From a virus (Duplodnaviria; Heunggongvirae; Uroviricota; Caudoviricetes): a stretch of 13,994 nt of DNA. Positions within the stretch are counted from its first letter, which is position 1. Each line of letters opens with the position of its first letter. Made by a program: the position numbers and the translations under genes. Location: the IMG/VR virus record IMGVR_UViG_2585427783_000004. The stretch is one strand, 5' to 3'. The notes beneath the pieces were generated by a model, which saw only the letters and a program-made list of their open reading frames with translations, was not told where the DNA came from and searched no databases. This document shows, one piece after another, positions 1 through 13,994 of the stretch.

Positions 1-1614
1 TTATTTATTGGTGAGTACTACGTTCCATGGCAGGAGTTCATCAACTCGGTTGGAAGGCCATTCCGGCAGTACGCTCAGGATATGGCGCAGATACGCTTCC
101 GGATCGATACCGTTCAGACGGCAGGTGCCGATCAGCCCGTACAACAGTGCTCCACGCTCGCCGCCGTGATCGCTGCCAAAGAACATAAAGTTTTTCTTTC
201 CGAGACAGACTGCACGAAGCGCTCTTTCCGCAGCATTATTATCCGCCTCCGCCAGACCGTCATCACTGTAATAACAGAGGGCATCCCACTGATTCAGTAC
301 ATAGCTGAACGCTTCGCCCAGTCTGGATTTTTTCGACAGCGTACCATTCTTCTCCACCATCCATTCATGCAGCGACGTCAGTAACACTTTGCTTCGCTGC
401 TGCCTGACGGCAAGACGCTCTGACTCCGGTAATCCCCGTATTTCATCCTCGATGGCGTACAGTTCACTGATTCGCTTCAGTGCTTCTTCTGCCGTCGCAC
501 TTTTGCTGCTGATGTATACATCGTGGATTTTTCGCCGGGCATGGGCCCAGCACGCAACTTCTGTCAGTGCACCACCTTCACGTTCTGCACTGAACAACCT
601 GTCGTAACCTGTGAACGCATCCGCCTGCAGGATACCCCGGAAGGGGCGGAGGTGTTGCTCCGGGTGTTTCCCCTGCCGGTTCGGCGAGTACGCGAACCAG
701 ACCGCTGGAGGAGATGACGAACCCACATTGCGATCATCCCGGACATACGTCCAGATACGCCCTGTTTTCGCCTTTTTCTGACCCGGTGCCAGTACCTTTA
801 CCGGTGTGTCATCAGTGTGAATCTTGCGGGTGTTCATTACATAACGGTACAGGGCATCATTCACCGGTGTCATTAACTGGCAGCACGCGTCAACCCAGTT
901 GGAGAGTAAGGCCCGGCTCAGTTCGACACCCTGGCGGGCAAAGATTTCACTCTGACGATACAGTGGCAGATGTTCGCAGTATTTTCCCGTTAACACGCGG
1001 GCAAGTAATCCGGGGCCCGCGATACCACGCTCTATCGGGCGGGACGGCGCCGGTGCTTCAACAATACAGTCACATTTTGTACAGGCTTTTTTTACCCGTT
1101 CTGTGCGGATCACTTTCAGGGCACTGCTCACCAGTTCCAGCTGTTCAGCGCTGACTTCCCCCAGATAATCCAGCTTACCGCCACACTCCGGGCAACAGCT
1201 TTCTTCTGGCTCCAGGCGGTGTATTTCACGGGGAAGGTGTGCCGGTAACGGACGACGATGGCGCGACTGTCGCAACTGGCGGGGAACCTGAGGATCGTCT
1301 TCCCGCCCACTGTAACGATCGCTGTCCTGTTCACGTTGTTTCAGCAGAGCCTCAGCCAGTTCAACTTCACGACGCAGTTTTTCAGAACGGGTACCGAACA
1401 GCATCCGGCGCAGTTTTTCTATCTGAGCCCGCAGATGTTCTATTTCCCGTTCATCTTCTTCGATCTTTTCTTCGGCACGTGTCAGTGCAGAGCGCAGGAA
1501 GGCTTCCGTCTCTTCAACCAGACTCAGTTGCTGGTCTTTCTGACGGAGGGCTTCAGCCTGCTCAGAGAGCAACCTTTCCAGCTCTGCGATGCGAATGAGG
1601 TATTTCTGACTCAT
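1..1614 (-). CDS. IS66-family transposase (TnpC / Orf3), 537 aa
   Basis: ATG at 1614, TAA at 3..1. Translation shows an N-terminal coiled-coil/leucine-zipper region, a CxxC...CxxC zinc-binding motif (CCPECGGK...CTKCDC) and a C-terminal DDE-type region, as in IS66 TnpC proteins (recognised from family signatures, not a search). Confidence 0.9.
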   Translation of the reverse strand: MSQKYLIRIAELERLLSEQAEALRQKDQQLSLVEETEAFLRSALTRAEEKIEEDEREIEHLRAQIEKLRRMLFGTRSEKLRREVELAEALLKQREQDSDRYSGREDDPQVPRQLRQSRHRRPLPAHLPREIHRLEPEESCCPECGGKLDYLGEVSAEQLELVSSALKVIRTERVKKACTKCDCIVEAPAPSRPIERGIAGPGLLARVLTGKYCEHLPLYRQSEIFARQGVELSRALLSNWVDACCQLMTPVNDALYRYVMNTRKIHTDDTPVKVLAPGQKKAKTGRIWTYVRDDRNVGSSSPPAVWFAYSPNRQGKHPEQHLRPFRGILQADAFTGYDRLFSAEREGGALTEVACWAHARRKIHDVYISSKSATAEEALKRISELYAIEDEIRGLPESERLAVRQQRSKVLLTSLHEWMVEKNGTLSKKSRLGEAFSYVLNQWDALCYYSDDGLAEADNNAAERALRAVCLGKKNFMFFGSDHGGERGALLYGLIGTCRLNGIDPEAYLRHILSVLPEWPSNRVDELLPWNVVLTNK

Positions 1615-1644
1615 GACCGTTTTTATAATGCGGTCAGGAGTTTT

Positions 1645-1995
1645 TTACAACATTGTCAGTGAGTTACGGCTGGATGTTTTTGGCTGACGCCAGTCCAGCT
1701 TATCGAGGAGCATTGCCAGTTGCGAGCGGGTAATGGATACCTTGCCGTCACGTACCGCAGGCCAGATAAACTGGCCTTCCTCCAGGCGTTTGGTGAACAG
1801 GCACAGACCATCAGCATCAGCCCAAAGAATTTTGACGGTGTCACCCCGTCGGCCACGGAAGATAAACAGGTGACCGGAGAAGGGATTATCATTCAGCACA
1901 TGTTGTACCTGTTCTCCCAGTCCGTTGAAGGATTTACGCATATCGGTAACGCCGGCAACGAGCCAGATACGGGTACCTGATGGGAGTGAGATCAT
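1645..1995 (-). CDS. IS66 Orf2 (TnpB-like accessory protein), 116 aa
   Basis: ATG at 1995 overlaps the tnpA stop (ATGA), TAA at 1645-1647. The MISLPSGTRIWLVAGVTDMRKSFNGL... N-terminus is characteristic of IS66 Orf2. Confidence 0.85.
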   Translation of the reverse strand: MISLPSGTRIWLVAGVTDMRKSFNGLGEQVQHVLNDNPFSGHLFIFRGRRGDTVKILWADADGLCLFTKRLEEGQFIWPAVRDGKVSITRSQLAMLLDKLDWRQPKTSSRNSLTML

Positions 1996-2417
1996 CTTCC
2001 CCTCCCGGTCAGTTCACGGATCAACACTGTGAGCAGCTCTGGCGATGGATTTTCCAGCGTCATGTTACCGTGACGGAATTCCACCTTGCAGGAACTGGCA
2101 CTGACTCTGGTCTGAGTGGAAGTGGATAAAGACGGCGCAATGGCCGCCACAGGTTCTTTCTGCTCATCCGGCGTTATTTCTACAGGTAATAATTCAACGC
2201 CAGTGTCAGAAGAGGTCGTTACCGGAAGACGCCGCGAAACACGCCCTTCGTTCTGCCAGAGCCTGAGCCATTTGAAAATAACATTATCATTGACGCCATT
2301 TTCACGTGCAATCTGTGCAACACAAGCTCCAGGTTGTGATGCCAGTTCCACCATACGAAGTTTGAATTCATTCGAATAGTTTTTACGAGGTTCTTTTCGC
2401 CAGTCCTGTAATTCCAT
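1992..2417 (-). CDS. IS66 Orf1 (TnpA-like, helix-turn-helix), 141 aa
   Basis: ATG at 2417; first gene of the IS66 triad; N-terminal HTH-like segment (CVAQIARENGVNDNVIFKWLR). Confidence 0.8.
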   Translation of the reverse strand: MELQDWRKEPRKNYSNEFKLRMVELASQPGACVAQIARENGVNDNVIFKWLRLWQNEGRVSRRLPVTTSSDTGVELLPVEITPDEQKEPVAAIAPSLSTSTQTRVSASSCKVEFRHGNMTLENPSPELLTVLIRELTGRGR

Positions 2418-2502
2418 ACTTAGATGTCCGTCTATATCAGATGGGCGTCTAAGTTACCAATTCTCGTCTGATGGCTACATACGGCGGTCAGTTTACGCTT
2501 AC

Positions 2503-3348
2503 GACAGAGTTATAATTTTTGCCAAAATTGGTAATGTCAGAATTTAATCCCTTAATTAAGTCTGCTGACGGCTTACCTTTTTGCCCCAGCTCCATTAGCT
2601 TCAATCCCATCTCATCTGAGTGAATTTGTGCTCGCTGAGCCCTGTCTAGTTGAGCGTTCTGGATATTTGCCCATCCTCTCGCGTTCTCCATGTCAGCCTG
2701 ACGCATACTTTCATCCAGTCGCCCTTGCTCAAGTCGACGACCTTCCATTTGATCTTTGATATCGAAATACTTCTCATGACCGAGAGAAAACAGCGCCAGA
2801 TTACCTGCGAAATGCTGGAAGCCCTGCGGGTCATTAACCTGCATTTCAGCAATAGTTTCTGGAGGGATACCTAAACGACGCATCTCCTGCTCATTATCCA
2901 TCATGAACCTGCCAAATGCGCCCTGACCAAGCGATGAGGCTACCTGTGCTTTGAGCGCCAGATTGCCATAATCATCCCTTTGAGCATCATCGACATAACT
3001 CATCCCTTTACGGACTTCCTCAAACTCTTCTGGGAATGCTGTAATAAGATTACGCATCTGCTCCCTGTCACCGGACGCATAAGCATCTGCATAACCTTTC
3101 TGGAATGCCGCTTTACGTTCCTGCTGTTGCTGCTGCTTATAAATGTCAGCAACTCCAGCCAGACCACGAAGACCTGTCAGAGCAACGTTATTTGCACCTG
3201 AGCGAGCCAGTTCATTGTTTTCGCGGATCAGACCAAGCGTTGCGTTAATGTCGCTTGCCTTTGGCGCATTCTCATTTTGCGCACCGATGCCAGCCAGAAA
3301 ACCACCAGAATTAATACCCTGTTGCCACGTAGCCATAAATTTACCCAC
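2503..3348 (-). pseudogene. Q/E/R-rich, predicted alpha-helical protein of unknown function; 3' end interrupted by the IS66 insertion
   Basis: Open frame from 3348 (alternative ATG at 3334, MATWQQ...) runs without a stop into the IS. The last codons and stop (V-S-V-N-TGA, 2502->2488) are encoded by the IS terminal repeat itself, so the native C-terminus is missing from the window. Poly-Q tract (QQQQQ) and coiled-coil-like composition. Confidence 0.55.
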
Positions 3349-3642: not shown

Positions 3643-4008
3643 TCGTTCTGTATGTCAGGTTTTGACAGTTTTTTTATGGACTCTAAAAACTATATTTATG
3701 GAGTCGCATTACTCTTCACGGCAGGCGCTTTCCAGTTCTGCCCTTGCTTCTGGCTCCATTGGTAATTTGATTCGCGATCAGCTATGCGGATGGTTTGCTG
3801 AACAGGCATAACAACATCTCAGAGGCTATTTTTTGAACTACGAAAATTTCGTAGTGCTCACCTTCAAAAACGTCACGCCCTTGTACACTGGATTTTACAA
3901 AAGTCTCGTAAAACTCTTTGCTGTTCTGGGCTATGTGCCAAACCGCAGCGAATACCTCCGTCTGCCAGATGAGCAAAACATACCTTATAAAGAAAATCGC
4001 TGTTTTTG

Positions 4009-4112
4009 CTGTACCACCTGTACCACCATGTCACAAACCCTTGTGTGGCGCGGCCTGCAGGTGGTACAGGTGGGTAAAAATGACCTCTCCCCACCTGTAC
4101 AGACCTGTACCA
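4009..4112. repeat. Iteron array B: direct and inverted copies of GGTGGTACAGGT / tandem 9-mers TGTACCACC; candidate crr/ori-like site
   Basis: Tandem CTGTACCACC-TGTACCACC at 4009-4027, GGTGGTACAGGTGGGTAAAAATGACC at 4060-4085, ACCTGTACAGACCTGTACC at 4094-4112. Same core motif as array A, 1.1 kb away. Confidence 0.5.
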
Positions 4113-4117
4113 TTTAT

Positions 4118-4855
4118 TTAATTTTTACCCATAGCAGCACATAATCCCTTTTTTGAAATATTGAAAAATGCGTTCATTCTTCCCGCTGGCTTAACCTTGT
4201 AGCCGCTTGCCACCATCGCCGCAATAAATGCTCCGTTGGGGATATAGTGCGGGTGATCACTGTGCTGGTGGTTTATCTGGTTATATCGCTCCACTTCATG
4301 CTTCAACGTGTCAGATGTGGGGTTATCCTGCGGGAAGCTCTCAATCTGGGCATTACTCATCCCGTTGTCTCTGATCCATCTCAGGCAGCTTTTCGCCGAT
4401 ACGATAAATGACGGGTTATCAAGCGGGTTTTCCCAGTCCGCATTCCGGTTGTGGAGCGCCAGTCCGTCAAGGTTAAATTGTGGGTATTCAGCGGTAATTA
4501 CTGTCACTGCGTGGCGGATTTCAGTCTCGTCACAACATGGCTCATCTCCCACACCAGCAGGGTAATAATCTGAACCACCGGGACTGATACAGCGTTTACC
4601 ACTGAAAGGCCATTGCTTCGCCATTTCGGGTGTTGAGTGATTACCGTCGCTCCGTTCGCGCTGTGCCTCTGTCCACTGGCTGGCATATTCAGTAAATGAA
4701 ACTCTTTGCCCCTGGCGCATCCAGTGCGCAATCATAATTAAAGTGCGTTCCAGACTTTGGATGTCGCCAGCATTCCCGCACTGTGTAGCGAAACTTTTTA
4801 ATTCTTCGCGCTCCGTTCTGGTCATTCCCTGCAGTATGCAATAGTTATTGTTCAT
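4118..4855 (-). CDS. Hypothetical protein, 245 aa (His-rich segment QINHQHSDHPHY); function unknown
   Basis: ATG at 4855 preceded by AGAGGT 4 nt upstream; 11-bp overlap with the upstream 76-aa gene; no stop for 245 codons. I do not recognise the family. Confidence 0.7.
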   Translation of the reverse strand: MNNNYCILQGMTRTEREELKSFATQCGNAGDIQSLERTLIMIAHWMRQGQRVSFTEYASQWTEAQRERSDGNHSTPEMAKQWPFSGKRCISPGGSDYYPAGVGDEPCCDETEIRHAVTVITAEYPQFNLDGLALHNRNADWENPLDNPSFIVSAKSCLRWIRDNGMSNAQIESFPQDNPTSDTLKHEVERYNQINHQHSDHPHYIPNGAFIAAMVASGYKVKPAGRMNAFFNISKKGLCAAMGKN

Positions 4856-5075
4856 GTTTTACCTCTCTGATTTCTGCTGCCATATCTGTTGGCTCTATAC
4901 AGCCGTCCCGACTTGCCACGCAGGGAATAATGATTTCAACGGTATCGCCGTCAATACACATTTCAACATTCGCCCATGCCGCAATGGGTAGCCAGTCTGA
5001 ACGCCCCTCAAACCGTAGCTGCCAGCCAGAGGAAGAAGCTAACTGGCGCACTTTGTAAAATGGTGTGCTCATCAT
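4845..5075 (-). CDS. Hypothetical small protein, 76 aa; first gene of a two-gene operon
   Basis: ATG-ATG at 5075/5072 preceded by GAGGG about 8 nt upstream; overlaps the following 245-aa gene by 11 bp. Confidence 0.6.
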   Translation of the reverse strand: MMSTPFYKVRQLASSSGWQLRFEGRSDWLPIAAWANVEMCIDGDTVEIIIPCVASRDGCIEPTDMAAEIREVKHEQ

Positions 5076-5118
5076 TGGTTGTTCCCTCTCAGCCAGCCAG
5101 AAGAAATGCGTTTGTTAA

Positions 5119-5222
5119 TGGTATAGGTGGTACAGGTCTGGTATAGGTAAGATATTGACCTGTACCACTATAACGCATTGTTTTTAATGCTGAATTAGCA
5201 AAGTGGTATAGGTGGTACAGGT
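5119..5222. repeat. Iteron array A immediately downstream of the primase gene: two direct 18-bp copies GGTATAGGTGGTACAGGT plus an inverted partial copy; candidate origin of replication
   Basis: GGTATAGGTGGTACAGGT at 5120-5137 and 5205-5222; GGTATAGGT again at 5140-5148; inverted ACCTGTACCACTATA at 5158-5172. The array begins 30 bp after the primase stop. Confidence 0.5.
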
Positions 5223-5251
5223 AAAAACGATCTTCTTGTAAAAAGACTATA

Positions 5252-7603
5252 TTAAAAAACATCATAACCCCCCATACCGATCAGACGGGCAAACGCAGCC
5301 TGTAGAACTCCGACCTCTGGTAGTTCGTAGAACACGCCATTCCCTCGGTCTGGTCTTCCATGCTTCACCAGCCCCATTTGTGCAAGTGATTTACCCAGTA
5401 GTGATCTGGCAGCTGGTTCTTTAAGCTTTTCCCCACGCTCAAGCGACCACGCTACAAATCGACTAACCATATCCTTTGCAAACAAACGGACTTCGCCATT
5501 AAACGGAGGTTCATTGATTAGCTCGCCATAAAGAAACAATTCAACGCCAGACAGCCCCAGCAAGATTTCTTCACGTAAGGCATCGGTCTGTGGCGCTCGT
5601 TGAGGGTCAAAACCTGAGAGATCCACCCCTTTAAGATGCCAAAGCAACTTTGCGGCACCGCCATCATTAAGCCAACTGTACAGCCGATCAAAATACTCCC
5701 GGCTCTGTGCTTTTTCAGGAGATGGCTCAAGCACGAGATAGCGGCGCTCTCTTATCCCTGCCTGTAATACCTGTGTGCTGTTACTGGCAAATATCAACCG
5801 GGCAAAATTCGGCATTGGTTCAGCATCAATTCCCTTGCGCTCAAGGTTAAACGTCGGTTCGCTAATAATCGCTTTAAGTCTGTCAGCTTCAGACGGCTTG
5901 TGGATCGTCACTTCGTCAGCAAATACCAGTAGCTTGTTAGCAAGTATTGAATTGAAGCGCCCTGAAATATGTCCCGCCCCGTTAATGTGGGCGGCGTACT
6001 GCCCCAGTATTTGCAGCAGCGGTTTAACCGTTGTGCCTTTCCCTGTGCCCGGGACAGATTTCATCACGATTGCCACGGACGGTTTTTCATCAGGCTTTTG
6101 GATAATGTGCGCCATCCACTGGATAAGATATTGGTATGCCTCTTCATTACCGGCACAGACAACCTGCAACAGGTGATTAAGGTATACCGTGCAATCTCCT
6201 TCAATTGGTTCCAGTGCCAGCCCCTCATACAGATTAAAAACATCGTCAGGGCATTTGTCTGGTACTGGATAAAATCCTACGCCTCCTGGCTTGTAGTTCT
6301 TCCCACTCCATGACAGCCACGCCGATCCCGCCAGCTTTCTGGCGACTCTCGGTTTATGATGAAAATAATGCTGAAATTGTGATAAATCCTCGAAAACGTG
6401 CGATACACCGCCGGTTTGAGAAGGCTTTAGCGACACCCCCTTGTGTTTCCCGCCGATGGTGACATGCGTAAACGTCCGGTTGATTTCTTCGAGGACAGCA
6501 ATTTCATCATCGCTTAACACCTCGCCAGAACTGATCTCATTCAGCGCCCCGACTGACTGTTTGTGATTTTTCACCTGCGCCCCTTTCCCCCGTGGCTGGT
6601 ACATCGAATCTTTAAATGCTGCTGTGGCTGCCGCCAGCCCGTGTTGTTGGTGATAGTCGTTCCAGTCGGCTTTATAGTCAGTCGGTGGCAGAGACACCCA
6701 GCCAGCTACGGAAATAGCGGCCCTCTCTGCGGCATCTTTCCCCGTGTTGATCCCTCCACTTTCGGAGTTTCCTTGCTGGTGATCGTTATCTGCGGCAATG
6801 ATGATTTGTGCCTGTGGATATGTTCTGCGCATGACTTCCGCTACTGGCAACAGGTTGCCAGCGTCGATTGCTGCCACTGTCATTGCGTCAGGGCGAATTA
6901 AATGGCACGACAGGGCGGTAGCCACCCCCTCAGCAATTATGATGCTGTGAGGTCGTTTCTGTGCGTTTATGGCGTGATATGCCCCTCGCTTTGCTGAACC
7001 TGTCAGGAGTCTTTTTTCACCATGTGAGGTAATAGTCTGTGCTGCTGTGACTGCGCCGGATTTATCCACCAGCGCCAGCAACAGAGATCCATCGGGCAAC
7101 ACAGGGAATGTAAAATCACCTACCCCTTTCGCAACCAGATAATCAGATTTGCCGTTTACAGCCTTTCTGCGCATGTCATCAAACTGACGGGAAAACGTAT
7201 CCCGTCTTTGTTGTTCGTCCTTCTCTGCCCTTTTCAGGCGCTCCTGTTCGCGTCGCTGGCGCTCGGTTTCCAGTTGTTCCCGTTTCTGGCTGGTGGCTTC
7301 TGGTGTTTCCGTTGTCCGGTAATCAATACCCAGAACATCAGCGGCAAGAAGCGCCGCCTCTGTTGTGTCGCAGTTATTTACGCGTTTAATTAAATCCAGC
7401 CCATCACCAGCGCCGCACTGATTACAGATGAAGCTACCGCGCCCGTTGTCATCGAACCGGAATCGATCTTTGCCCCCACATGCAGGGCAGGGAGCATGAC
7501 GGCGCGGAGAGTCAGGGACATTTATGTTCAGGCAGTCCAGCACATGAGGCCAGTTGTTTTCAGACGCACTGATAACCTGACGGATAAGATCAATGTTTCG
7601 CAT
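5252..7603 (-). CDS. P4 alpha-like bifunctional primase/helicase (zinc-binding primase N-terminus, TOPRIM-like middle, P-loop NTPase C-terminus), 783 aa
   Basis: ATG at 7603. Zinc-ribbon motif CPACGGKDRFRFDD...CNQCG near the N-terminus, Walker A-like VPGTGKGTT, overall size close to P4 alpha (about 777 aa). Recognised from family signatures. Confidence 0.9.
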   Translation of the reverse strand: MRNIDLIRQVISASENNWPHVLDCLNINVPDSPRRHAPCPACGGKDRFRFDDNGRGSFICNQCGAGDGLDLIKRVNNCDTTEAALLAADVLGIDYRTTETPEATSQKREQLETERQRREQERLKRAEKDEQQRRDTFSRQFDDMRRKAVNGKSDYLVAKGVGDFTFPVLPDGSLLLALVDKSGAVTAAQTITSHGEKRLLTGSAKRGAYHAINAQKRPHSIIIAEGVATALSCHLIRPDAMTVAAIDAGNLLPVAEVMRRTYPQAQIIIAADNDHQQGNSESGGINTGKDAAERAAISVAGWVSLPPTDYKADWNDYHQQHGLAAATAAFKDSMYQPRGKGAQVKNHKQSVGALNEISSGEVLSDDEIAVLEEINRTFTHVTIGGKHKGVSLKPSQTGGVSHVFEDLSQFQHYFHHKPRVARKLAGSAWLSWSGKNYKPGGVGFYPVPDKCPDDVFNLYEGLALEPIEGDCTVYLNHLLQVVCAGNEEAYQYLIQWMAHIIQKPDEKPSVAIVMKSVPGTGKGTTVKPLLQILGQYAAHINGAGHISGRFNSILANKLLVFADEVTIHKPSEADRLKAIISEPTFNLERKGIDAEPMPNFARLIFASNSTQVLQAGIRERRYLVLEPSPEKAQSREYFDRLYSWLNDGGAAKLLWHLKGVDLSGFDPQRAPQTDALREEILLGLSGVELFLYGELINEPPFNGEVRLFAKDMVSRFVAWSLERGEKLKEPAARSLLGKSLAQMGLVKHGRPDRGNGVFYELPEVGVLQAAFARLIGMGGYDVF

Positions 7604-8692: not shown

Positions 8693-8883
8693 TTTTCACC
8701 ACCAAGAATTACCAGCTCTGCACGGGCATCGTTAACCAAAGATGAGCACGCTTTAATCGCATCCACGACATCAGCAGCGTCCATTTCTTCAGCCGAAAGA
8801 CTGACAGCAACCAGGACAGCCGCTGCTTGCTCGATTAATTGAAGTGCGGACGTAAGGCGAGGGGTATTAATTGAGTTATTCAT
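8689..8883 (-). CDS. Hypothetical small protein, 64 aa
   Basis: ATG at 8883 preceded by GGGGG about 6 nt upstream; 8-bp overlap with the upstream gene. Confidence 0.5.
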   Translation of the reverse strand: MNNSINTPRLTSALQLIEQAAAVLVAVSLSAEEMDAADVVDAIKACSSLVNDARAELVILGGEK

Positions 8884-9094
8884 TGGTTGCCCCCGTTTTT
8901 ACTGGCATTTCGCCACCTTCCAGCAGGAAATGAACGTCACGAACGGCGAGATCCAATATCGCGAGTAACGCCTTCAGTCTTTCGTCTCGTGAGGGAGAGT
9001 TGCTCACCAGAATGTCGTTAATCACTTCTGTCAGTGTGATGATCTGGCTTGTGCGTTCGAGGGGATCCATATGCACATCGTAGGTTTTAATCAT
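8876..9094 (-). CDS. Hypothetical small protein, 72 aa
   Basis: ATG at 9094 preceded by GGAGGTG at ideal spacing; the start overlaps the stop of the upstream 64-aa gene (CATGATTAA). Confidence 0.55.
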   Translation of the reverse strand: MIKTYDVHMDPLERTSQIITLTEVINDILVSNSPSRDERLKALLAILDLAVRDVHFLLEGGEMPVKTGATNE

Positions 9095-9281
9095 GTGCCA
9101 CCTCCATGCGGATACGACCAGCAAAAAAGCAGACGTGATCGCGCACCAGAGAACGGCGAGCATCGCGTTCAGACTCGGCAGCAATATGATGAATTTTGGC
9201 GGTAATTGTCGGGCAATCGCGGCGAACTGCGGCGATAATCCAGATAAATTGCGTTTTTTGGGTAGGGGTAGTAGCCAGCAT
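9087..9281 (-). CDS. Hypothetical small protein, 64 aa; first gene of the early operon that ends with the primase
   Basis: ATG at 9281 preceded by a perfect AAGGAGG 7 nt upstream. All seven Arg codons are CGC/CGT and Leu is CTG, whereas the overlapping frame of the 355-aa ORF is full of CTA/TTA/ATA/AGG/CGA here. Confidence 0.55.
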   Translation of the reverse strand: MLATTPTQKTQFIWIIAAVRRDCPTITAKIHHIAAESERDARRSLVRDHVCFFAGRIRMEVAHD

Positions 9282-9477
9282 GTGGCAGCCTCCTTCAGAT
9301 AGCAGGTTACGCTACCACCGGAAACGCCAATTTCGCTGGTGGTAGCCCAGACAGGGTTGGCGTAACCGGCTCTGAAGGATACCGGCGCTTCCGAAGAAGC
9401 CCCCGCCTGAGCCACCATTGATTGACAAAGGCGCTGGATTATACACCAACGCCCAAAAAATGGGTGAGTCAGACCTA
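9282..9477 (-). promoter_or_regulatory. Promoter plus structured 5' leader of the early operon
   Basis: Minus-strand TATAAT at 9443->9438 (no good -35). Downstream leader has a UUCG-tetraloop hairpin (GCUUC-UUCG-GAAGC, 9400->9387) and a 9-bp stem hairpin (GCUACCACC ... GGUGGUAGC, 9346->9311) before the SD at about 9290. Confidence 0.35.
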
Positions 9478-9513
9478 CGACATAAAAAAAGACGCTTGGC
9501 GCGTCATATGTCG
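9478..9513 (-). terminator. Candidate rho-independent terminator at the end of the alpA-side transcription unit
   Basis: Minus strand: stem GACGC / GCGUC (5 bp, 5-nt loop) followed by U7 (9490->9484), nested inside a larger inverted repeat CGACAT ... ATGTCG (9478-9483 / 9508-9513). Confidence 0.4.
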
Positions 9514-9943
9514 CCTTCAGAATTTTTAGGACGCCAATCCCGGCACCCGTTTTATGAGGTGCCTTATAACCATAAACCGTGTTGCCGCATAACGGCAAGC
9601 TCTTTTTTATGGACTCCGAAAACTCACTATTGGAAGAACCAGAAGCACAGTACATCGCGCTCATTTCGTTAACGTCACGCGCGTGGACGAAGGTTTTTGT
9701 GGAGTCACTACACGAGCAGAGAAAGCCATCTACGACCAGAAATTCTCTGGCATAGCCGCTGACCTTCTCAACGCTAACACCATCGACCGTAATTTCTGAC
9801 ATAGTTAAGGCATCCGCTCCTACCACCAGCAAATGATAAACTTTGCTTGTATCTGCTGTATTAATGTCTGACTTTGCTGTCATATTGCTGGATTTTGGCG
9901 ACATACCAGCCAGTGAAAATATCTTCTTCTGGGCGGTTAGCAT
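9514..9943 (-). other. Open frame with a plausible start (GGAGG + ATG at 9943) but no in-frame stop before the terminator and promoter; possible decayed gene or chance open frame
   Basis: SD GGAGG 7 nt upstream of the ATG at 9943 and protein-like composition for about 120 codons, but the frame runs through a terminator, a promoter, leader hairpins and a better-supported gene in another frame without any stop. Confidence 0.25.
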
Positions 9944-10957: not shown

Positions 10958-11389
10958 TTAGGCGGCGTTAAACGCGTCCGGGTAGAGTTTCAGAATGTCG
11001 GCAATTTCCTGCTGAGAAAGTCCGTTGTGATCATTTATGTTCGCAAGATGGTTAACATGAGTGATCACTTTCAGAACATCACCACGGCAGGAGAAACGGT
11101 AGCGAAGGTGTGTTCCGATACCATCAGGATTCTTTTCGTCGATACGCTCCAGAGTGATTCCAAGCTGGCGTTCTAACTCTGTTGCATAGTTACGACCAGA
11201 AGACAGACGGCAGTAGCGAAGAATGTCATTTTCTGTCCATCCCTCTATACCAGTACGCAGCATATAGACTCGGGCACGATGCTTTTTCGGTGTGCGCTTT
11301 GGTGCTTGAAGGGATTTTGTAAGGGGCGTAATATCAGATACGCGAATATCTGAATTAGCCGCCTGTAATGGGCGGTTTTTCTTTTCCAT
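10958..11389 (-). CDS. Hypothetical protein, 143 aa, basic N-terminus; function unknown
   Basis: ATG at 11389 overlaps the alpA stop (ATGA); no stop for 143 codons; conventional codon usage. Confidence 0.6.
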   Translation of the reverse strand: MEKKNRPLQAANSDIRVSDITPLTKSLQAPKRTPKKHRARVYMLRTGIEGWTENDILRYCRLSSGRNYATELERQLGITLERIDEKNPDGIGTHLRYRFSCRGDVLKVITHVNHLANINDHNGLSQQEIADILKLYPDAFNAA

Positions 11390-11607
11390 CAGGCCACCTT
11401 CCCGCGGCGTTCTGCCAGCCAGTTATTAATTTCCACCGCATCAAACGCAGTCACGTTATCTGTTAGCTTCACTGGGCGTGGAAGAGTGCCATTTTTAACC
11501 CATCTATCAATAGTAGGCAGTGAAACACCTAGCAATTCCGGCATGCGAAAGCGACGGATGTATCCAGTTGTTGGGATAGCTGATGATGCTGGCTTGTGTA
11601 CTGTCAT
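11389..11607 (-). CDS. alpA: AlpA-family (excisionase-like, MerR-type HTH) transcriptional regulator, 72 aa
   Basis: ATG at 11607. Small protein with the motif MPELLGVSLPTIDRWVKNGTLPRPVKL...AFDAVEINNWL typical of AlpA/Xis-type regulators found next to P4-type integrases. Confidence 0.75.
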   Translation of the reverse strand: MTVHKPASSAIPTTGYIRRFRMPELLGVSLPTIDRWVKNGTLPRPVKLTDNVTAFDAVEINNWLAERRGKVA

Positions 11608-12078: not shown

Positions 12079-12729
12079 TTAGTCGAGATCGTGGACAGCT
12101 AATAAAGCCCGTGAGATTTTTTCTAGGAATGTGGCTTTTGCTATTCCTTTATGGGATATCCCTTCATCCTTGATTAAGGTTTCTATGTCACGGTATATAG
12201 CTGTGCGATTAGGTTTCCCATTTTGGATGTAGGAAGATGAGCCTGATTTTTTTATCAGCAGATGTACTATCAACCCCATCATTTTCATTGTCCCGTTTTC
12301 CTCATCCTGCTTTCTATGCTGCCCACGTCCGCTGCGGTTGGTTTCTTTGATGTAGTTTACTAACTGGAGTCCTCCAAGGTTTCGGGCTTTTTCTTCCCAG
12401 CCCTTGGTGCCACGCAAATCATCAATCGCTTCTGATATTTTCTGAACAATTATTTCTGGTGTATTTGTGTCAATAAATGGGTAAGAAGCTAAGAAAATAT
12501 CAAGGGCATGGCAAGGCTCATCTTTACTAGTTTTTTCACCTCTGTACACCTTGATAGCTCTGGCAAGATGAGTTCTGACAAAATCGACATATTCGAAATT
12601 TTCCTCAGGCACATCGCTAATGCGCATAGATGGGTTTAGGCCAGCCAAGGCCACAGCCATTTCATGAGGGGTAATCGATACAGATGAACAAAGCCGTTCG
12701 ATTGGCGATTTTCTCAAGATGTTGTTCAC
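12079..12729 (-). CDS. Hypothetical protein, 216 aa, translationally coupled to the integrase; AT-rich cargo gene of unknown function
   Basis: GTG start at 12729 overlapping the integrase stop (GTGA) with a strong GGAGG 5 nt upstream; TAA at 12079-12081. Visibly lower GC than neighbouring genes. No family recognised. Confidence 0.6.
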   Translation of the reverse strand: MNNILRKSPIERLCSSVSITPHEMAVALAGLNPSMRISDVPEENFEYVDFVRTHLARAIKVYRGEKTSKDEPCHALDIFLASYPFIDTNTPEIIVQKISEAIDDLRGTKGWEEKARNLGGLQLVNYIKETNRSGRGQHRKQDEENGTMKMMGLIVHLLIKKSGSSSYIQNGKPNRTAIYRDIETLIKDEGISHKGIAKATFLEKISRALLAVHDLD

Positions 12730-13994
12730 ATTTGCCTCCGGGCTTTATCGAATGGCGTTACGTTGTAGTCTTTCCCGCTTTCCAGTGCCACCAGCAGATC
12801 TGCCCACTGTGCCAGTGCTGCTTTACGCTCATCAAAATACTGATGACGGTTATAAATCCCCTCTACGCCCTTAATGCGATGATTGAGGCATCGTTCCGCC
12901 ACGACAGGATCAACACCCAATGCTGCTAAATGAGTACGTGCGGTGCGTCGGAAGTCGTGAATCGTGAAATTAGGCACATCCGGCATTTCGGCGCGAACCT
13001 TAGCCAGTGCTACGGGTAAAGTGCTTTCCTGAATATGTGGGATCATTCTGTTTTGCATCTTCCTGGCCGGAAGCACCCATGCGCTATTACATGAAAAGGT
13101 GTGTAGCTCTCTCAACCATTCAACGGCTGGGGAAGGTAGAGGTATATCAATAGGGTCTCCGTTTTTGCTGCGTTCTTCCGGCAAATGCCATACCGCACCA
13201 TCTAAATCAAACTCTTCCCATCGTGCGGCGCATAACTCCATCTTACGAACGCATAGTGCCAGCAATAGCTTAAATGTCAGTTCGTTCTGGCGGCTGAATC
13301 CTTTTGCGGTGCGCATAGCCTCGAATAGCCTGATAAGCTCATCGCGAGTTAGCCAACGGTCGCGGGAAACCTCTTTACCACCAGCATCAGATACTTCAAA
13401 CGCTGAACAAGGGTTTATCTCCAGAGCGTGGCGTTTTATCCCATAGTCAAAGATACGGCGTGTCCAGCGTAATACATCTGTTGCTATCGTTGGTGCTCCT
13501 CGGTCAACGATACCTTTTAACATGTCGTCAATGTGACGTGGCTTAACGTCCTCTACCTTCATATGCCCAATGCAGGGGTTAATATCCTTATCAATTCTCC
13601 GGCGAAGGATATCGGGATGTTTCCATCTCGGAAGTATCTGTCGCTCGAAGTATTCGGCGGCCAGATCTGAAACGCGCATGGCGTTTTTCTCAGCCTCCAT
13701 TTTTGCCAGTGCTTCAGCTTTTCGTTCCTGTTTTTCTGCTGCTACGTCATAGCCAAGAGCAACTCTGGCTGACAGCTCTTTTGCTGTTTCTCTGGCTTTT
13801 GATAGTGACAGTTCGGAGTAAGAGCCGATAACCATAGCCCGCTGTTTTCCTGCGAGCTTATATCGGAATCGCCAGAACGGGACTGTGTAGTTTTTGGGGT
13901 AGCAAATATAAAGGCCGTTGCCGTCTGCCTTGCCATCAAATCTGTCTCCCGCCTTTATCCATGCGCGGATCTGCATATCTGTGAGTTTTGGCAT
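12726..13994 (-). CDS. int: Tyrosine recombinase, P4-type phage integrase, 422 aa
   Basis: ATG at 13994 (window edge). N-terminal arm-binding region with RFRYKLAGKQRAMVIGSY...LSKARETAKEL, and C-terminal catalytic region with HDFRRTARTHLAALGV and a conserved Tyr (YNRHQY). Confidence 0.9.
   Translation of the reverse strand: MPKLTDMQIRAWIKAGDRFDGKADGNGLYICYPKNYTVPFWRFRYKLAGKQRAMVIGSYSELSLSKARETAKELSARVALGYDVAAEKQERKAEALAKMEAEKNAMRVSDLAAEYFERQILPRWKHPDILRRRIDKDINPCIGHMKVEDVKPRHIDDMLKGIVDRGAPTIATDVLRWTRRIFDYGIKRHALEINPCSAFEVSDAGGKEVSRDRWLTRDELIRLFEAMRTAKGFSRQNELTFKLLLALCVRKMELCAARWEEFDLDGAVWHLPEERSKNGDPIDIPLPSPAVEWLRELHTFSCNSAWVLPARKMQNRMIPHIQESTLPVALAKVRAEMPDVPNFTIHDFRRTARTHLAALGVDPVVAERCLNHRIKGVEGIYNRHQYFDERKAALAQWADLLVALESGKDYNVTPFDKARRQM

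Follow-up and report, generated by a model that had tools for sequence, protein, structure and literature searches.

Organization of the Iteron Arrays

The 13,994-nucleotide stretch of viral DNA considered here (IMG/VR record IMGVR_UViG_2585427783_000004; "the window" denotes this stretch at its full length) is an integrative island with transcription on the minus strand and, to judge from its integrase, alpA, and primase-helicase genes, is an Escherichia coli island resembling the phage-inducible chromosomal islands (PICIs). Downstream of the primase-helicase gene lie two arrays of short repeats (iterons), designated A and B, which enclose two small genes and are proposed below to be the two halves of the replication origin of the island. 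The features of this region, in the direction of transcription, are as follows (aa, amino acids).

5252-7603, minus strand: gene for a 783-aa alpha-type primase-helicase (Pfam PF08273, PF13362, and PF19263: Zn-ribbon, Toprim primase, and DUF5906/D5-like P-loop helicase, with a C-terminal winged-helix-like domain)
5255-5713, minus strand: the C-terminal 153 residues of the primase (631-783), a candidate iteron-binding winged-helix domain
5223-5251: AT-rich linker that separates the primase stop codon (5252-5254) from the tandem pair of array A and contains an A/T run
5119-5222, minus strand: array A, the ori-type unit, with tandem iterons at 5213-5221 and 5204-5212 read in the primase direction
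5168-5203: spacer of array A, 36 bp, AT-rich, 31% GC
5159-5167: inverted iteron of array A, CCTGTACCA, followed by an 11-bp gap
5139-5147, 5128-5136, and 5119-5127: direct iterons of array A
4845-5075, minus strand: gene for a 76-aa protein, between the putative origin units
4118-4855, minus strand: gene for a 245-aa protein with a possible winged-helix subdomain, also between the units
4008-4112, plus strand: array B, which is the crr-type unit and has the opposite orientation to A, with tandem iterons at 4008-4016 and 4017-4025 (the CTGTACCAC copies being at 4009-4017 and 4018-4026)
4104-4112: iteron of array B, CCTGTACCA
4094-4102: degenerate iteron of array B, CCTGTACAG
4062-4070: inverted iteron of array B, within the opposite-strand 12-mer GGTGGTACAGGT at 4060-4071
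4026-4061: spacer of array B, 36 bp, GC-rich, 63-64% GC, with GGCGCGGCC at 4047-4055
3918-4007: module-specific flank of array B, which contains a run GAAAATCGCTGTTTTTG; the sibling islands diverge at a mosaic junction at about 3915

Both arrays had been recognized in an earlier reading of the window made from the letters alone (the original prediction), which placed array A close behind the primase stop codon, with two direct copies and an inverted copy of its motif, and described array B as tandem 9-mers with the same core in both orientations; all of these elements are present at the coordinates given there, the gap between the stop codon and array A being 29 nt. The motif itself also stands, but its repeat unit is better described as the 9-bp sequence TGGTAYAGG (CCTRTACCA on the other strand) than as a 12-mer, and it occurs six times in array A and five times, once in degenerate form, in array B. 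The sequence TGGTATAGGTGGTACAGGT is found twice in array A at 100% identity (5119-5137 and 5204-5222). The two arrays, which are separated by 1006 bp, are inverted copies of one plan of about 105 bp that consists of an A/T run, two tandem iterons spaced by 9 bp, a 36-bp spacer, an inverted iteron, a short gap, and two or three direct iterons. They differ in the composition of the spacer, which is AT-rich in A and adjoins a linker of 20% GC, whereas that of B is GC-rich; the 40-bp stretch from 5223 to 5262, also 20% GC, is among the lowest in the window. The end of array B and the stop codon of the 245-aa gene are 5 nt apart. As single-stranded DNA, the regions that contain the arrays (4000-4120 and 5110-5230) are predicted to form hairpins far more stable than shuffled controls (z of −4.7 and −4.6, respectively) because of their inverted iterons, and such hairpins could matter after the origin has been unwound.

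The arrays are not a product of chance. When up to two mismatches are allowed, the 12-mer has nine matches in the window compared with 0.63 expected, a number that none of 200 shuffled sequences reaches, and eight of the nine lie within the two arrays; in about 112 kb of other E. coli DNA there is a single isolated exact copy. The composite unit, defined as two tandem iterons followed after 33-39 nt by an inverted iteron, is absent from 20 shuffles of 516 kb. The exact unit pattern was found in 11 stretches in IMG/VR and in 33 stretches in 596 Gb of genomes, one for each of 185,579 species, with a chance expectation of about 0.1 by our own estimate. The original prediction had held that commonness of the motif, as of a repetitive extragenic palindromic (REP)-like element, would speak against its reading; on this copy number, with at most two copies per element, the readings as a REP-like repeat or bacterial interspersed mosaic element and as a miniature inverted-repeat transposable element were rejected. 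The isolated exact copy, GGTGGTACAGGT at position 47106 of locus L058, in the major capsid gene of a lambda-like prophage of CFT073, lies outside any array and is probably a chance occurrence.

Linkage of the Iterons to the C-terminal Half of the Primase

The N-terminal 335 residues of the primase are 33% identical to phage P4 alpha (BLASTP, E 9e-41) and match Pfam Zn_Ribbon_Prim and Toprim_3. The helicase region matches DUF5906 with E 1.4e-19 and scores 20.4 bits with TIGR01613 ("primase, P4 family"), against a cut-off of 108.7 bits. A sequence search of the PDB gave no match to the P4 origin-binding domain, and Foldseek against the PDB returned weak matches, all with E of at least 0.04.

Three independent lines tie the iterons to the C-terminal half of this protein. 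The first is a module swap between islands. About 330 E. coli genomes match the window only over 3800-3914/3917 and then diverge, and two such sibling loci (L002 and L003) continue past the junction with a different origin, in which GTTGGTTCA iterons are grouped compactly around an AT-rich core, and with a different primase, which carries DUF927 instead of DUF5906. The sibling primase is essentially identical to that of the window over residues 1-214 and 86% identical over residues 1-351, but nothing is alignable beyond residue 351. Since the sibling islands share the N-terminal part of the primase and the flanks and differ beyond them, the exchanged block extends from about residue 351 (window position ~6550) to window position ~3915 and takes in array A, both small genes, and array B.

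The second line comes from loci retrieved by protein similarity alone, at 45-90% identity, which include, besides IMG/VR contigs whose C-terminal domain is 45-50% identical, loci of E. coli variants, Raoultella, Salmonella, Xenorhabdus, and Citrobacter. All 15 of these carry CTGTACCA-type clusters beside the primase, and the core is invariant down to 45% protein identity. The iteron columns of array A are 90-96% identical, compared with 35-54% for the other columns; only these loci entered the conservation statistics, the loci derived from the pattern having been left out because they were selected for intact iterons. The third line is the pattern scan, in which the DNA fetched for 23 of the 44 stretches encodes a homologue of the C-terminal half of the primase, often joined to a different N-terminal domain and in taxa as distant as the Methylococcales.

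The products of the two enclosed genes have no match in Pfam, PHROGs, NCBIfam, or PADLOC, and the structural model of the 245-aa protein (predicted local distance difference test score, 88) gives only weak matches to winged-helix folds. The 76-aa gene follows a primase of this type in E. coli, Raoultella, Salmonella, and Xenorhabdus. Both genes accompany this primase type in the Enterobacterales but are missing from remoter relatives that keep both iteron units; the two proteins are therefore not the readers of the iterons.

Arrangement of the Paired Units in Relatives

Wherever both units are visible they converge, with the ends that carry the tandem pairs outermost, but the distance between them and what lies within it vary as follows.

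About 20 bp apart, nothing between: Citrobacter, Buttiauxella, Hafnia, Rahnella, Methylobacter, and EcCICFT073
0.3 kb apart, the 76-aa gene only: Xenorhabdus innexi
1.0 kb apart, both genes: E. coli, Salmonella, and Raoultella
4.8-8.6 kb apart (4.8, 6.9, and 8.6 kb), the replication operon or other genes: Xenorhabdus ehlersii and loci L017 and L042; also P4

Such a range of separations is compatible with two sites that work together over a distance, as would be expected of ori and crr, the two replication sites of phage P4. The GC-rich spacers of the B-type units of several genera and of EcCICFT073 (L059, ~14186-14196) contain a GGCGCGGC(C) motif, of which the window copy is at 4047-4055; in Methylobacter it is present as the reverse complement, and it was not found in P4 crr or in the Xenorhabdus units.

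Interpretation and Alternatives

Our preferred interpretation, to which we assign a probability of roughly 75%, is that arrays A and B are two cis-acting halves of a PICI-like island origin, built on the plan of P4 ori/crr and of the origin of the E. coli island EcCICFT073. It is well supported that this split origin is a further example of the known P4/PICI kind rather than a new mechanism, with an initiator of a distinct C-terminal family and a distinct iteron specificity. Upon induction and excision of the island, the 783-aa primase-helicase would bind the 9-bp CTGTACCAC iterons through its C-terminal winged-helix domain. At array A, where iterons flank the AT-rich spacer and adjoin the 20%-GC linker, the DNA would be melted, and the helicase, of the superfamily 3 type, would be loaded there; the Toprim domain would prime synthesis by the host polymerase III without assistance, with DnaA, DnaB, and DnaG dispensable as they are in P4. 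Array B would be a second, crr-like site that the same protein contacts by means of a DNA loop over the 1.0-kb insert with its two genes. A positive role for array B is favored by the strict convergence of the units and by the presence of a B-type unit inside the validated origin region of EcCICFT073.

Several observations weigh against this interpretation. In Raoultella (L007), the iterons of array B are 76% conserved compared with 72% for the surrounding DNA, and in locus L010 the arrays, B included, are degenerate; because of these two cases, and because array B has no AT-rich spacer, some lineages may not need B. By BLASTP, no similarity to P4 alpha or to the EcCICFT073 primase is detectable in the C-terminal half of the primase, and the P4 origin-binding domain (1KA8) is absent from the top 60 structural matches of its model. 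The iteron is constant within the primase family, which leaves no classical signal of covariation between protein and site to examine; the module swap with the sibling islands was used in its place because the iteron core is invariant in the family. Finally, 17 of the pattern stretches, mostly from Xenorhabdus and Photorhabdus, have no alpha-type primase in the fetched DNA, and the two viewed closely are in prophage-like contexts. Probing of these Xenorhabdus and Photorhabdus units with four primase types and with the proteins of the X. ehlersii island accounted for only some of them.

Intact units in Xenorhabdus (L016, 1977-2037; L051, 7206-7266) lie between conserved open reading frames (ORFs) of 183 and 105 aa, beside phage capsid and baseplate genes. 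No alpha-type primase is present within 5-7 kb of either unit, and L051 has a protein with superfamily 2 helicase and Toprim domains. These could be phage-borne copies of a satellite-type site.

The most serious rival, although we consider it improbable, is that array A alone is a complete origin and that array B is a negative copy-number locus that acts, like incA of P1, by titration or handcuffing. Negatively acting iteron clusters that flank the rep gene are established for the P1 and F plasmids, and this precedent is joined by the 64% GC of the array B spacer compared with 31% in A, the want of an AT-rich spacer in B, and the degeneration of B in L007 and L010, as expected of a non-essential element. 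However, the layout matches that of P4, whose crr is annotated as required in cis (NC_001609), a B-type unit is part of the intergenic segment of EcCICFT073 whose cloning gave a functional ori, and simple titration does not call for strict convergence. On the sequence data, array B may still act negatively, like incA, rather than positively, like crr.

It is very unlikely that array B has no function and is the remnant of a duplicated or displaced half of the origin that stayed behind when the pair of 76- and 245-aa genes was inserted and is now decaying. This reading would account for the L007 iterons, which are kept no better than their flanks, and for the degenerate arrays of L010, and it accords with the partly degraded state of the window island, in which an IS66 element interrupts a cargo gene. 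B-type units with intact iterons, the 36-nt spacing, and the GGCGCGGC motif are, however, maintained in E. coli, Salmonella, Buttiauxella, Hafnia, Rahnella, Erwinia, and Citrobacter, and also in EcCICFT073 despite its different iteron. The iteron columns of array B are moreover conserved above the other columns in Salmonella (93% compared with 61%) and Citrobacter (80% compared with 32%).

The original prediction had also allowed that the arrays might be operators flanking the enclosed operon, in which case a regulator, or the primase itself, would control or insulate the two genes. In its favor, the start codon of the 76-aa gene follows 43 bp after array A, B lies directly beside the stop codon of the 245-aa gene, and the 245-aa protein has weak winged-helix-like structural matches. 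The reading is nonetheless unsupported, and we regard it as highly improbable. A scan of both arrays and the DNA beside them detected neither a sigma-70-like promoter nor an intrinsic terminator, so that the operator and terminator readings were both dropped. Furthermore, the units stand side by side and enclose no genes in Citrobacter, Buttiauxella, Hafnia, Rahnella, Methylobacter, and EcCICFT073, they flank the whole replication operon in Xenorhabdus and P4, and arrays are present where the 245-aa gene is absent. The variable content between the convergent units argues against operators and against a mobile cassette alike. On the latter reading, the two genes would sit in a small mobile or invertible cassette with the arrays as its terminal inverted repeats, and this can be dismissed almost entirely: the outer ends do form a 24-nt inverted repeat (88% complementary, 1176 nt apart), but no transposase or invertase gene lies between the arrays, the units stay linked to the primase while distance and content vary from 20 bp to 8.6 kb, and the repeat consists of iterons arranged as in P4 ori and is not dispersed in genomes.

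An extension of the preferred interpretation as a two-part origin can be offered only tentatively, and we think it rather unlikely to hold. It is that a convergent pair of units, one with an AT-rich and one with a GC-rich spacer, is a general and previously unformulated grammar of alpha-type replicons, with primase-helicases of superfamily 3 (P4, PICIs, and the present helicase family, which is unrelated to theirs by BLAST, from Enterobacterales to Methylococcales), in which the halves are joined by a protein-mediated loop. If this were so, two helicase hexamers might, for example, be loaded head to head, the separation of the halves would be free to range from 20 bp to more than 8 kb with genes carried inside the origin, and the firing of the origin would be linked to the 76-aa and 245-aa genes.

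Context of the Island

The region that contains the arrays is 100% identical to the chromosome of the enterotoxigenic E. coli (ETEC) strain H10407 in the comparison made with the window, and it is present at an identity of at least 98% in 130 of 5,426 complete E. coli genomes. The remaining features of the island, in minus-strand order, are as follows.

12726-13994: integrase gene, first in the order
11389-11607: gene for an AlpA-type regulator
Between the AlpA-type regulator and the primase-helicase: AntA/B and "Ash" region, then small ORFs
After the 76-aa and 245-aa ORFs: P22-type ejection-protein genes, one of them disrupted by an IS66 element (window 1-2502)

The IS66-family element (ORFs of 537, 116, and 141 aa) splits a P22 gp20-like "Inj_translocase" gene (2488-3348) that is intact in other strains. 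A full P22-type ejection/injection set (DUF2824, Inj_translocase, and gp16-like) is found in islands of the family (L002, 5985-8538; L004, 9258-12343); such cargo is unusual in an island of the satellite type and suggests that the helper phage may resemble P22. In relatives L005-L009, genes for a single-stranded DNA-binding protein (SSB) and PerC lie downstream of array B, as they do after the EcCICFT073 origin; in the window, their place is taken by the ejection-protein cargo. Within the 355-aa "ash family" ORF (8876-9943) there are Rfam matches at gathering level to C4 antisense RNA (9335-9422, minus strand, 79.9 bits) and to isrK (9485-9562, minus strand, 60.5 bits), which point to an RNA immunity module of the P1/P4 type; the call of an "ash family" protein may be at least partly spurious.

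Comparison with Known Origins

The window has the gene plan of a PICI, consisting of int, alpA, a unidirectional operon, and a pri-rep gene. In Gram-negative PICIs, the origin is directly 3' of the pri-rep gene and has sets of iterons around an AT-rich region (Fillol-Salom et al., 2018; PMC6092414). Array A is placed in the same way, 29 nt past the primase stop codon with iterons on both sides of its 31%-GC spacer. All of the features tested are those of a PICI-type replicon, with helper-phage-induced excision, replication, and packaging as putative steps. Literature searches, which covered sources other than the classic P4 papers, found no description of the iteron, and the supplementary material of PMC6092414 mentions neither the iteron nor H10407.

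EcCICFT073 shares with the window island the same int, alpA, unidirectional operon, primase, and 3' origin, and it has SSB and PerC genes downstream, as do relatives of the window island. Directly 3' of its primase gene (L059) there is an A-type unit at 14009-14114, with an AT-rich spacer and the iteron CTGTCTACC, followed by a B-type unit at 14140-14236 that is inverted and whose spacer is GC-rich. The pri-ori segment of this island drives plasmid replication, deletion of ori lowers replication (PMC6092414), and, as "Primase-Ori," it serves as a primase-dependent conditional origin (PMC11338833). The two units of EcCICFT073 are adjacent within about 230 bp, whereas those of the window island are split by two genes, and the C-terminal half of its primase is P4-alpha-like (40% identity) and by BLAST unrelated to that of the window primase. 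Primase/origin pairs of the PICI type serve as orthogonal conditional replicons for phage-delivered payloads (PMC11338833), and a pair with the distinct CTGTACCAC iteron specificity would be a ready-made orthogonal addition to them.

Two other systems invite comparison. The Rep protein of the Staphylococcus aureus pathogenicity islands (SaPIs), which are Gram-positive PICIs, is a self-loading helicase initiator, and we know of no separated second unit described for SaPI origins. As in the window island, the SaPI origin is directly 3' of rep and has sets of iterons around an AT-rich region (PMC6092414), but the initiator family, the iterons, and the host differ. In plasmid P1, one iteron occurs in two clusters, incC and incA, around the replication gene, the second lying outside the melting region, which is again the arrangement of the window island. 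The incA cluster is a dispensable negative regulator and is bound by an initiator of the RepA type. P1 differs in that the layout in the window follows that of P4, whose second site is annotated as required in cis.

In P4, the alpha protein combines origin binding, 3'-5' helicase, and primase activities, and crr is reported to be required in cis. The P4 record (NC_001609) annotates type-1 repeats, ori, and crr ("cis required region for replication"), and the TGTTCACC octamers that the original prediction had given for both sites agree with this annotation. The likeness of architecture proposed there extends to the interior of the sites. Read in the direction of alpha, the iterons of P4 ori have the strand order + + − + + + and start-to-start distances of 10, 43, 22, 11, and 10; read in the primase direction, those of array A have the order + + − + + + and distances of 9, 44, 21, 11, and 9. 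Common to the two are the T-run, the 36-bp AT-rich spacer, and three direct iterons, and a T-run equivalent to that in the linker of array A precedes the tandem pair in both P4 ori and crr. The crr units are inverted with respect to ori, as B is with respect to A, the second site of P4 also lies kilobases away, and EcCICFT073 holds the same two units.

There are also clear differences. The P4 iteron is CTGTTCACC (annotated as type I TGTTCACC), whereas that of the island is CTGTACCAC with the core CTGTACCA(C), so that the iteron sequences do not agree. P4 ori and crr flank the alpha operon at a distance of 4.7 kb, whereas both units of the island follow the primase and are separated by two genes over a distance of 1.0 kb, and P4 crr is a tandem duplication of the unit, which in array B is single. 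The Zn-ribbon/Toprim N terminus of alpha is homologous to that of the island primase, but the helicase and origin-binding half is not alignable. The sid, psu, and delta genes and a P2-type cos site, the satellite module of P4, were found neither among the window ORFs nor in the annotated H10407 island; a Citrobacter relative (L012) carries P2-capsid and Ogr/Delta genes. As a P4-type ori/crr system, the island agrees with P4 in layout and in the N terminus of its primase, but not in iteron sequence, and its helicase and origin-binding half cannot be aligned.

The comparison shows P4 ori/crr and the PICI "ori" to be built on a single architectural plan, which is reused by a primase-helicase whose origin-binding half is unrelated in sequence. 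For a widespread E. coli/ETEC island family it assigns a concrete candidate origin with exact iterons and two separable halves, and the natural series of spacings, from 20 bp in EcCICFT073 and several genera to 8.6 kb, offers a means to probe the action of crr-type elements over a distance.

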